Sequence record: ON556632.1
Origin: Escherichia phage hz69
Direction: 5' to 3' (one strand)
DNA: 42,991 nt
Numbering within the stretch: position 1 is the stretch's first letter; every line of letters begins with the position of its first letter. Shown piece by piece: positions 18,572 through 21,254 of this stretch. The notes beneath the pieces were generated by a model that saw nothing but the letters and a program-made list of their open reading frames with translations, had not been told where the DNA came from and ran no database searches. The position numbers and the translations under genes are program-made.

Positions 18572-20881
18572 TTAATACCCCGGCTGGTTTCGTGTAGCAC
18601 GGCGTGACTTAGAGATTGCACTGTTGCTGTCTTGTAACGCCGCCGATACTGTTTCGCTGATGATAACACGTAACCGCCCTTCGTCGTCACGCTCTGTAAC
18701 GGCGGAATCAACACGTCCGGTGGTGTTGTTGACGATTGTAACGCTGTCACCGCCTGACTTGTTGCCGTTCTCGCCCATAATCTGGCGCATCTGTTCTGCG
18801 GTACGGACGCGTGACGCCCCTGCAGGCATAATAACTTCTGGCTTGTTACGTTCCGCGATAGTAGATAACTGACCTGCAGCTAAGTTACCGCCCTGCTCAC
18901 GGGCCGAACGAATTTTGCCAATGTTTGCGAGCCCCGCGGCTACGGCGGCGGCGGCGGCTACAGGCCCGAGCACCCATCCAACAATAGGGATAGCCGATGC
19001 AGATTTATAAGCCTCTATAGCGGAGGTGTATGTGGCAATAGTGGCCTGCGCAATAGCGAAAGCTTTGTACGCAGTAGACGCTTCGCCAAGCGACGATTTA
19101 ATATTATCCGCCATCATGCCAAAAGCGTTACCCGTTGCGTTAGCACGTTTTAACGCGTACTGGTCATTTATAGCATTAACCGCGGCCTGGTACTGTTCTT
19201 CGTTAATCAGATTCTGTTCGCGATACCTGTCAGCAACGTCCAGTTTTTGTTGCTCCTGAATCTCCAGAAGCTCAAGCTCAGCGGCGTTTTGGCCCATAAT
19301 CTGAGCCATGAAGTCTTCGCCTTTCTGGTTCTTCTCCTGTCGTTCTTTCTCTCGCTTGGCGAGTTCTTCCTGGCGGGCCTGTTCGGCCGAGAGCATAATC
19401 TGCGTCCTGGCGTTTTCGTATTGCTGCTGGCTTATAGTCCCAGCTCTGTTAAACTCTTCCAGTTTTGCCAGTTTCTGCTCTTCCGCAGCGGTAATGCGCG
19501 AAATCTCATCTCCGGTTGTGCGGTCGACAGTAGCCAGGAAATCTTCCGCCGCTTTTTTCTGTCGTTCAGCCGCCGTTTCTTCGCGTTTGGCTTGTGCCGC
19601 CAGCCGTTTCTCGTTCGATTTGGCCTCGCGGTCGGCCTTCGCTTTTTCGGTAGCGTCGATGCGAGCGATGTCTTGTTGTGCTTCCGTGTCACGCGCAGCA
19701 TTATACGCGGCGATCTGTTCTTTGGTGACAGCTTCACGTTTAGCGAACGCCTGCTTATCCAGTTCAGCTTGCGCACGGATACGCTCGCGGTCACTTAAGA
19801 TAGCGATTTGCTGGTTTTTGACGATAGCTTCGTTCTGTTCCTGGAATCTCTGCGTTGTTGAGTTGACGTTACGACCAAGATTCTTTTGGGCCTCCGCCGC
19901 CGCGTTTGCGGACTTCTCCGCGTTCTCCAGTGCCGTGGCGTTCTTGTTGGCATTGTCGGTCAGGCGGATAAGTTCCGGGTTCAACTGTTTTGTATTACCG
20001 AGCCAGTCGGTAAACACATCGGCGATGCGACGGGCATTCTCGGCGGTTGGCTCTTTGTTAAACGCACTCTGCGCCGCTATCATCTCCAGCGCCTGGTCAC
20101 GGTTAACCCCAAACTTACTGCTAAGCTCTGCGATATTCTGTGCCAGCATGTTGACGCCGACGATATTACCCTCGTAAGTGCCGCCTAGTTTTTCTAACGT
20201 GTCGCCTACATCCGCGCCCTTAGAGACCAGCGCGTCATACTGGCTGATAGCCGATGCCGTGGATGCTTTCCATGTCTCCCATGATTCTGCATCCTCACGA
20301 ACGGCTTTAGCTGTTTGCTGCGCGATAAGGTCAGCGTTAGCCTTAGCCAAAGCAAGCTGAGTCTCCGCCGCTTCTCTGCTGATTTGGGTAAGCTGGATAA
20401 GGCCGTCTGTCAGTTCGAGAGAGCCGGACGCCGTTTGCTGGAAAGTATCTTTTAGCTGTTTCTGTGCGGCTTCGAGGTCTTTTGAACTGCCTTCTGCTTC
20501 GGTTAACGATTTATACAGGACACCACCGATTGCTGACGCAAGAGCAATTACGGCCCCAAGCACCGCGCCACCAGGGCCGAAAGCACCCGCAAGCTGAGAG
20601 CCTTGTTGCCCGATTGCTACGAATGCAGACGTGCCGGACTGCAACTGGACGACCATGTCCTGCACCTGGAAGCCTACCTGCCCGGCGGCGTTACGGAATT
20701 TAGCGAAACCGTCAGAAGCCGCTTTAGACGTAGCGGAGTTTACTTTATTAACATCCGGCGTTAGTTTGTTTACGGATGTGTCCGCACGGTCTGCGGATGC
20801 CGCCATAGCGTCAAGCTGTTTAGCGGCTACATCAGCGCCTTCTGTTTTTACTCTGGCAATTAGGGAAGCCGTATCAGCCAT
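18572..20881 (-). CDS. tail tape measure protein
   Basis: About 770 aa, Ala/Gln/Glu-rich coiled coil with Gly-rich hydrophobic segment GAVLGAVIALASAIGGV; ATG 20881 with RBS GAGGG (track start 20896 is TTG). Confidence 0.85.
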   Translation of the reverse strand: MADTASLIARVKTEGADVAAKQLDAMAASADRADTSVNKLTPDVNKVNSATSKAASDGFAKFRNAAGQVGFQVQDMVVQLQSGTSAFVAIGQQGSQLAGAFGPGGAVLGAVIALASAIGGVLYKSLTEAEGSSKDLEAAQKQLKDTFQQTASGSLELTDGLIQLTQISREAAETQLALAKANADLIAQQTAKAVREDAESWETWKASTASAISQYDALVSKGADVGDTLEKLGGTYEGNIVGVNMLAQNIAELSSKFGVNRDQALEMIAAQSAFNKEPTAENARRIADVFTDWLGNTKQLNPELIRLTDNANKNATALENAEKSANAAAEAQKNLGRNVNSTTQRFQEQNEAIVKNQQIAILSDRERIRAQAELDKQAFAKREAVTKEQIAAYNAARDTEAQQDIARIDATEKAKADREAKSNEKRLAAQAKREETAAERQKKAAEDFLATVDRTTGDEISRITAAEEQKLAKLEEFNRAGTISQQQYENARTQIMLSAEQARQEELAKREKERQEKNQKGEDFMAQIMGQNAAELELLEIQEQQKLDVADRYREQNLINEEQYQAAVNAINDQYALKRANATGNAFGMMADNIKSSLGEASTAYKAFAIAQATIATYTSAIEAYKSASAIPIVGWVLGPVAAAAAVAAGLANIGKIRSAREQGGNLAAGQLSTIAERNKPEVIMPAGASRVRTAEQMRQIMGENGNKSGGDSVTIVNNTTGRVDSAVTERDDEGRLRVIISETVSAALQDSNSAISKSRRATRNQPGY

Positions 20882-21254
20882 CTTCTCTGCCCTCAAATAT
20901 TCCGTCTAAGCCCATGATAACCTCGGCTTCGAACAAACTTATGCCGTAACCGGCGACATCACGAAACGCTACCAAATCTTGCCATTTGAGCGCATCGCGC
21001 GGGATTATGACGATAGTATCATCTGTTTCGCGCTGTAGGAATTTAATGGCGCGGTATTTCTCGAACACGTCGATAAGAGAAACGGGGCATTCAGGCCCCG
21101 TCGCTTCTTTCATCTGCGGTTCTTTAATCACGCCCATTGCAATCAAAGCCGCCTGGTGGCCCGCCGCGATGTCGTCGAATTGCTTACGTTTGTGGCGGTC
21201 GACAAAGCACCATTGCGCAAATTCATACAGCGCTTTTACTTTTCCGAGAGTTTC
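20874..21254 (-). CDS. tail assembly chaperone -1 frameshift extension (lambda T-like)
   Basis: Frame -1 relative to the G-like ORF is open from 21254 to stop 20874-20876 and overlaps the last 6 codons of G; candidate slip site GGAAAAG just before the G stop. Confidence 0.45.
   Translation of the reverse strand, partial: ETLGKVKALYEFAQWCFVDRHKRKQFDDIAAGHQAALIAMGVIKEPQMKEATGPECPVSLIDVFEKYRAIKFLQRETDDTIVIIPRDALKWQDLVAFRDVAGYGISLFEAEVIMGLDGIFEGREDG

Follow-up and report, generated by a model that had tools for sequence, protein, structure and literature searches.

A probable -1 frameshift on an A_AAG site adjoining a stop codon at the G/T tail assembly chaperone locus of Escherichia phage hz69

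In Escherichia phage hz69, the gene for a G-like tail assembly chaperone ends within a long open stretch of its -1 frame (here T), which runs up to the tape measure gene, and this locus raises the question of how ribosomes enter the second frame. We addressed it by computational analysis of a 42,991-nucleotide (nt) stretch of hz69 DNA, here called the window, whose full-length numbering is used for all coordinates; the chaperone and tape measure genes lie on its minus strand. The region is very probably the G/GT tail assembly chaperone pair of a Kagunavirus siphophage, in which slippage of tRNA-Lys from AAG to AAA yields a fusion of 259 amino acids (aa). A G-T fusion by -1 frameshifting, as proposed in a preliminary description of the window, is supported by gene order, by the relation of the two frames, by membership of both halves in chaperone families, by a comparison of 16 lineages and by identity of the derived fusion to a protein of phage K1H. 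The G/GT frameshift as such is a textbook case that was already known, with the identical product present in GenBank. The added value is modest and concerns the shift signal of the subfamily, which is NNA_AAG plus a stop and not a canonical heptamer, together with a conserved GCG-CTG block and an intragenic hairpin.

The G gene (138 aa, 21236..21652) was recognized from the open reading frame (ORF) list and from its matches to PHROG 15027 and Pfam PF08748. Its ATG at 21652 is preceded at a distance of 6 nt by the Shine-Dalgarno (SD) sequence AAGGA (-5.3 kcal/mol), and its 3' end reads CTC TCG GAA AAG TAA, with the TAA at 21238-21236. The T frame, identified by ORF scan and family matches, is open for 126 codons (20874..21254 with its stop), is bounded by TGA at 21257-21255 and TGA at 20876-20874, and overlaps the G frame by 16 nt. 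As (21236-20874) mod 3 = 2, it lies one base 5' of the G frame, i.e., in the -1 relation. The shift site G_GAA_AAG (21239..21245; conserved core A_AAG, 21242..21239) directly adjoins the G stop. On the basis of homology and K1H identity, the fusion coding sequence is complement(join(21239..21652, 20874..21239)), with base 21239 read twice, and the part of T translated after the slip comprises 121 codons (21239..20877). The positions given in the preliminary description, with G ending at 21236, the -1 frame open from 21254 to 20874 just before the tape measure gene and G_GAA_AAG directly before the G stop, all check out, as does the frame relation. Both frames lie between the tail tube gene (25093..23921, minus strand; PF18906) and the gene for the tape measure protein (769 aa, 18572..20881, minus strand; PHROG 1538, E=1.6e-189). 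The latter likely starts at ATG 20881-20879, which has the SD sequence GAGGG at 8-nt spacing (-6.1 kcal/mol) and is equivalent to the ATG at which the tape measure gene begins in the annotation of phage Bas75. This ATG and the T-frame stop overlap as ATGGCTGA, and the fusion ends 2 nt past the ATG.

Both frames belong to tail assembly chaperone families. G matches positions 1-138 of PHROG 15027 (E=1.2e-65) and Pfam PF08748 Phage_TAC_4 (35.9 bits, cutoff 21.1), and the T-frame product matches positions 138-259 of the same PHROG profile (E=2.7e-62), PHROG 4557 (E=6e-57) and Pfam PF23812 Phage_TAC_18 (E=8.6e-18; 64.7 bits, cutoff 27). PHROG 15027 is a profile of 259 positions labelled 'tail assembly chaperone', and because G fills positions 1-138 and T positions 138-259, it was evidently built from fusion proteins. 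The derived fusion, in which ...REKLSEK is followed by VKALYEF..., spans this profile end to end (1-259 of 259, E=2.2e-134) and is identical to ADA82316.1 / YP_009168853.1, the 'tail assembly chaperone' of Escherichia phage K1H. A random frame would remain open over 121 codons with a probability of (61/64)^121, i.e., ~0.003, which together with the PHROG and Pfam matches argues that T is not a chance ORF. Sequence searches found no solved-structure relatives of G or T.

A region of 1.1 kilobases (kb) around the locus is 99.7% identical to Escherichia phages BUCT789, Bas75 and Henuyfy11N, from which we infer E. coli as the host; with many Kagunavirus (Guernseyvirinae) genomes, identity is 94-99%. 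K1H, K1G, fFiEco02 and Shemara, at 94-99.7% DNA identity, share the locus, its gene order and its shift site with hz69 and differ in nothing of substance. The chaperone pairs of related phages bear out the proposed fusion, as joined frameshift coding sequences of the same length class are annotated in fFiEco02 (FE2_025/026), K1G (ORF22A/22B) and Shemara (gp24/25). In many sister records, for instance BUCT789 and the Bas70-76 series, the join is unannotated and a separate ORF of 87 or 118 aa is called. The 118-aa version starts from CTG in Bas75 (L001, 3571-3927) and from TTG in Snoke (L054, 713-1072), and the 87-aa version starts from an internal ATG in XY2 (L003, 2164-2427) and Tsm2 (L056, 806-1069) and is present on 241 contigs in the protein collection. 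The main value of the present analysis is thus one of annotation, the closest genomes having split the locus into a chaperone and a spurious 87- or 118-aa 'hypothetical protein'. The annotation rule for the whole subfamily is NNA_AAG directly before TAG or TAA.

Whether T is translated, and from where, was examined by comparing 50 IMG/VR loci encoding G relatives and five GenBank relatives, grouped into 16 lineages of <85% nucleotide identity with G identities of 43 to 100%. The architecture is the same in all 16: G has 138 codons and ends in G-N-A AAG TA(G/A), and the -1 frame runs on for 120-122 codons to the tape measure start. Conservation of the T protein sets in at its very start, with the motif KV.ALY.(F/Y)A.W...(K/E)FD.I..H. 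In T codons 2-35, i.e., upstream of the internal ATG, the ratio of nonsynonymous to synonymous polymorphism (pN/pS) is 0.355, compared with 1.54 and 1.58 in the other phases. Over the same codons, variability is 0.25, 0.23 and 0.52 at the three codon positions, highest at the third, and the other two frames are interrupted by stops in 46/46 and 44/46 sequences. Purifying selection thus acts on the T frame only, which indicates that the N-terminal third of T is translated. None of the candidate starts is conserved: Met36 (ATG 21137) is replaced by Ile in four lineages, and one lineage lacks any ATG, GTG or TTG in the first 45 T codons. Therefore, the only conserved entry into T is from G. More distant relatives (L049, L051, L052 and L053), with 30-35% G identity, carry canonical -1 heptamers in the G/-1 overlap, with T_TTT_TTC and A_AAT_TTT located 25-58 nt before the G stop, or 7-58 nt when T_TTG_GGC is included. 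Frameshifting thus appears to be an ancestral habit of this gene position. The support is one of position, and a phmmer search of the hz69 T against the -1 ORFs of these relatives detected no similarity.

Synonymous variation is suppressed at the G/T junction only. The 16-lineage alignment shows a suppressed block of 17 nt, GNA AAG TAR nn GCG YTG (21228..21244, minus strand), which in the window reads GAA AAG TAA AA GCG CTG, with two free bases preceding GCG. This suppression points to an RNA-level signal of ~17 nt (21244..21228), presumably a frameshift cassette. All 16 lineages have NNA_AAG (GAA_AAG at 21244..21239 in the window) and hence the minimal Z_ZZN motif A_AAG. Lys138 is encoded by AAG in 16/16 lineages versus 42% AAG in the window's own usage, and the third base of the penultimate codon is A in 16/16, across four different amino acids. 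Among the ~59 ORFs of the window, only G ends in A_AAG_TAR. Upstream of this core the site varies: the penultimate codon is GAA in nine lineages, GCA in five and GTA in two, with GGA in one sequence (L042), whose site G_GGA_AAG is the same as that of lambda, and the base 5' of this codon is mostly G (13 lineages), with A in 2 and C in 1. It follows from this variation that X_XXY_YYZ is not maintained and that A_AAG is conserved whereas P-site re-pairing is not. The likeness to the G_GGA_AAG of lambda that was noted in the preliminary description therefore extends to A_AAG, which is the same, but not to the tandem heptamer, in place of which the family conserves G-N-A_AAG and a stop.

On the 3' side, codon choice in the T frame is equally narrow, with GTA for Val2 and GCG for Ala4 in 16/16 lineages and CTG for Leu5 in 15/16 (TTG in the remaining one); at other fully conserved Ala, Leu and Gly positions, by contrast, 4-5 different codons occur. 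Twelve lineages use TAG as the G stop and four use TAA; none uses TGA, although it would leave the T-frame Val unchanged (as GTG). A crude count of stop usage in the window gives 33 TAA, 18 TGA and 8 TAG. The base after the stop (region 21238-21234) is always A or C, although the third stop base and the following base are confounded with T-frame residue 3. According to work attributed to Poole and colleagues in 1995, A or C after the stop is said to make a weaker termination context in E. coli. We searched for stimulatory elements of the kinds found in insertion sequence (IS) elements, i.e., a downstream structure or an upstream SD-like motif, and found neither: RNAalifold returned 0 pairs for the 16 lineages between -30 and +123, the window's own downstream fold is weaker than that of shuffled sequence (z=+1.38), and the 16-lineage alignment holds no consistent upstream SD-like motif. 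The only invariant neighbours of A_AAG are the 0-frame stop and GCG-CTG.

The GCG CTG (21228-21233, minus strand), which encodes Ala4-Leu5 in the T frame, is an observation in its own right and has no explanation by slippage. Inspection by eye for a pairing partner of GCGCUG, AGCGC-like upstream or YRGYGY near the Trp codon downstream, showed none that is consistent across lineages. Possible roles of GCG CTG are that of a 3' context element within the frameshift signal and that of a near-cognate codon for reinitiation.

Taken together, these features suggest the following course of translation. Most ribosomes would make G (138 aa) and stop at TAA 21238-21236, but a small fraction would slip back by one base on the last sense codon, tRNA-Lys moving from AAG (21241-21239) to AAA (21242-21240), and would then read GTA (21239-21237) and 120 more -1 codons to produce the 259-aa fusion. 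By analogy with lambda, the G part, present in both products, would attach to the tape measure protein, and the T part would bring in the tail tube protein; also as in lambda, a low slip frequency would give a large G:GT ratio. We expect the slip efficiency to be low, in the range of 0.1% to a few percent. Since NNA_AAG and the stop are conserved and there is neither a conserved canonical heptamer nor a conserved downstream structure, single-tRNA(Lys) slippage on A_AAG, perhaps helped by the adjacent stop, is favoured over an obligatory tandem slip. Most likely, the slip occurs with AAG in the P site while the stop waits for release factor, the 'shifty stop' or vacant-A-site regime that was reportedly described by Weiss et al. 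in 1987 and by Caliskan et al. in 2017. A hexanucleotide-type slip would be an alternative single-tRNA mode. Among -1 tetramers in E. coli, A_AAG shifts most readily by a wide margin, with 5.6% frameshifting when combined with the IS3 pseudoknot and ~0.15% without it (PMC4066793). At NNA_AAG hexanucleotide sites, employed by IS1222 and also present in B. subtilis cdd, tRNA-Lys alone re-pairs, with an efficiency governed by how the tRNA for the NNA codon wobbles; a single E. coli tRNA-Lys (mnm5s2U34) decodes both AAA and AAG (PMC5009743).

The alternative that survives best is a tandem slip on G_GAA_AAG as in lambda, in which tRNA-Glu would re-pair from GAA to GGA in the P site and tRNA-Lys from AAG to AAA in the A site, with the same 259-aa fusion as the outcome. 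This is possible but in our view rather unlikely. The complete G_GAA_AAG is present in hz69 and 8 other lineages and would allow two Watson-Crick pairs and a central G.U, and in L042, a relative, the site is exactly G_GGA_AAG. The penultimate codon invariably begins with G, and the base before it is G in 13/16 lineages. Heptamers of the form V_VVA_AAG are the most shift-prone class in E. coli, the best of them reaching ~0.3% when no stimulator is present and as much as ~3.7% where the 3' context is favourable (PMC4066793). However, all four bases occur at the second position of the penultimate codon, and the P-site tRNA cannot re-pair in the five lineages with G_, A_ or C_GCA or in the two with G_GTA, whose architecture is otherwise identical. 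Tandem re-pairing is therefore not maintained by selection across the family, but since near-cognate re-pairing from GAA to GGA is possible in hz69, a tandem slip may contribute there.

The other alternatives do without a slipping ribosome. Separate production of T by independent initiation, either by reinitiation at CTG 21230-21228 or by a start at ATG 21137 (87 aa), would yield no fusion at all. It draws on the codon used for Leu5 of T, as both CTG (15/16 lineages) and the single TTG (Snoke) are near-cognate starts and other conserved Leu positions use five different codons, and it agrees with the annotation of 118-aa ORFs from CTG or TTG in Bas75 and Snoke and of 87-aa ORFs from ATG. The T frame also holds TTG 21146, ATG 21137 and GTG 21131, and ATG 21137 has a weak SD-like site, a bulged AGGCGG (-5.8 kcal/mol) at 10-nt spacing. 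The statement in the preliminary description that T has no plausible independent start with a ribosome-binding site was thus too strong as worded, although the start in question is not conserved. In 4 lineages an Ile codon replaces ATG 21137, and selection is purifying over the 34 codons that precede it; as for the CTG, the lineages with GCA_AAG offer no SD, and hz69 offers only -3.5 kcal/mol at 11-nt spacing. Neither the fixed -1 relation nor the preference for AAG over AAA and the invariant third-position A across four amino acids would be accounted for by separate initiation. Moreover, T is tethered to the tape measure in the lambda model through the G part (PMC5009743), which T made on its own would not have, and distant relatives have canonical slip heptamers. 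On balance, we regard independent initiation as improbable. The candidate starts considered were CTG 21230, TTG 21146, ATG 21137, GTG 21131 and ATG 21113; all have weak or badly spaced SD sequences, are not conserved and were rejected.

Least credible of all is transcriptional slippage, whereby RNA polymerase would insert or skip an A within the GAAAAG run, four A at the junction in the window, to give a minority of in-frame G-T mRNAs: the A run of 3-4 bases makes this unlikely, as slippage-prone runs comprise about 7 or more A or T, 7 lineages with the same architecture have only three A (GTA AAG, GCA AAG), and a one-base deletion would be required to reach the T frame.

Several points weigh against -1 slippage on A_AAG itself. 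We found no experimental evidence in the literature consulted for the fusion in this phage group, and the authors of the related Shashou genome found 'no canonical slippery sequence' (PMC6776780). G_GAA_AAG is indeed not the canonical X_XXY_YYZ site of a lambda-type pair. In reporter assays, A_AAG is barely over background without a stimulator (PMC4066793), and no stimulatory structure is present here. That the stop adjoins the site could simply be due to indels being nearly absent from this family, in which G has 138 aa in every lineage down to 43% identity. Finally, the invariant GCG-CTG (with one TTG) is unexplained by slippage and would fit a weak non-AUG reinitiation codon.

Comparison with known frameshift systems places hz69 close to lambda, whose gpG/gpGT pair was reportedly worked out by Levin, Hendrix and Casjens in 1993 and by Xu, Hendrix and Duda in 2004, 2013 and 2014. 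The lambda site G_GGA_AAG is canonical and located several codons before the G stop. In hz69, unlike lambda, the stop follows directly on the site, which is G_GAA_AAG (NNA_AAG in the family as a whole), the Pfam families are TAC_4 and TAC_18, and an opposite-strand cassette splits the tube gene from G. Shared with lambda are two overlapping ORFs directly upstream of the tape measure gene, both halves being of chaperone families in hz69, a second ORF in the -1 frame without a start of its own (no start or ribosome-binding site is conserved in the hz69 family) and a slip on A_AAG near the end of G. Also alike, no RNA stimulator is needed and low-level fusion is expected (PMC5009743). In lambda, gpG and gpGT are made at about 30:1, and in the lambda model the G part tethers T to the tape measure protein (PMC5009743). 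A pair of the lambda type is further defined by a skewed ratio of the two products and by a GT that tail assembly needs but virions lack. IS1222 (G_CGA_AAG) and B. subtilis cdd (A_CGA_AAG; Licznar et al. 2003, summarised in PMC5009743) resemble hz69 in that only the Lys codon can re-pair, from AAG to AAA, in having a 5' codon with a final A that a U34- or I34-wobbling tRNA reads, and in the E. coli-type host with a single tRNA-Lys(UUU). Unlike the A_AAG tetramer with the IS3 pseudoknot, hz69 has no detectable stimulator, and the 0-frame stop is always the next codon. The E. coli dnaX site A_AAA_AAG is a full heptamer that works at about 50% efficiency with an SD-like stimulator upstream and a stem-loop downstream, and none of its stimulators is present in hz69. 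The common element is the shift-prone tRNA-Lys on AAG (PMC5009743).

As NNA_AAG plus a stop is the signal, searches for canonical heptamers fail in this subfamily. The family further represents a natural, phylogenetically replicated stimulator-less A_AAG site adjoining a stop, with a clear zone of synonymous suppression, and could be used to test how the stop codon and the 3' context contribute to -1 slippage. A broader proposal, which we put forward tentatively and consider doubtful as a whole, is that Guernseyvirinae possess a distinct, structure-free -1 cassette, composed of A_AAG, an obligatory weak stop and GCGCUG and acting by a P-site slip, combined with a terminator spacer in the T frame. 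The stop would be UAG or UAA, never UGA, followed by A or C and by the invariant 3' GCGCUG, and the peptidyl-tRNA-Lys would slip in the P site while the A site awaits release factor. The rarely translated T frame would serve as a spacer whose partial terminator keeps G well above the tape measure at the RNA level.

The spacer refers to a GC-rich hairpin of 8 base pairs (bp) with a 6-nt loop, found by terminator scan at 21081..21102 (minus strand), i.e., at T codons ~47-54, and followed by the T-rich tract TCTCTTATCG, which reaches about 21071. By its sequence, the hairpin (21102..21081) looks like an intrinsic terminator. Under strict criteria, a hairpin occurs at +136 to +141 after the G stop in 8/16 lineages, with equivalents in L022, L025, L030, L033, L045, L047 and L056; the same criteria give only 7 other matches over about 48 kb on this strand. 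Compensatory changes affect three stem pairs, with 14 double-change cells versus 6.5 in shuffles, and 78.7% of stem cells are paired versus 68% in shuffles; 0/500 shuffles reach the observed values, and slid controls are lower on both cells paired and double-change cells. In another clade (L015 and L018), a hairpin of unrelated sequence with a T tract is found at the same place. If only a few percent of ribosomes translate T, the stretch with the hairpin is effectively untranslated. As a hypothesis only, the hairpin could be a partial intrinsic terminator or an mRNA (3') stabiliser that raises G over the tape measure protein.

The surroundings of the locus contain several further features. The opposite-strand cassette between the tube gene and G (21817..23755, plus strand) encodes a 108-aa protein with a signal-peptide-like N-terminus and no family match, a 376-aa metallophosphoesterase or 'DNA repair exonuclease' (PHROG 704) and two small ORFs; the first cassette position is occupied by a superinfection-immunity gene in Snoke, K1G and 37P2. 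Given this cassette upstream, G appears to begin its own transcription unit. In the divergent intergenic region of 164 bp (21653-21816), promoter-like sites on both strands overlap: a sigma-70-like promoter candidate upstream of G, GTTACA-17-TATATT (21771..21799, minus strand; 9/12 matches in a consensus scan), and TTCACA-16-AATAAT (21788..21815, plus strand). The G leader also holds the GC-rich inverted repeat GCGGGTGGTTCCCGC. A 97-aa ORF antisense to the G/T junction (20986-21279, plus strand) is most likely spurious, being an open frame opposite a coding region.

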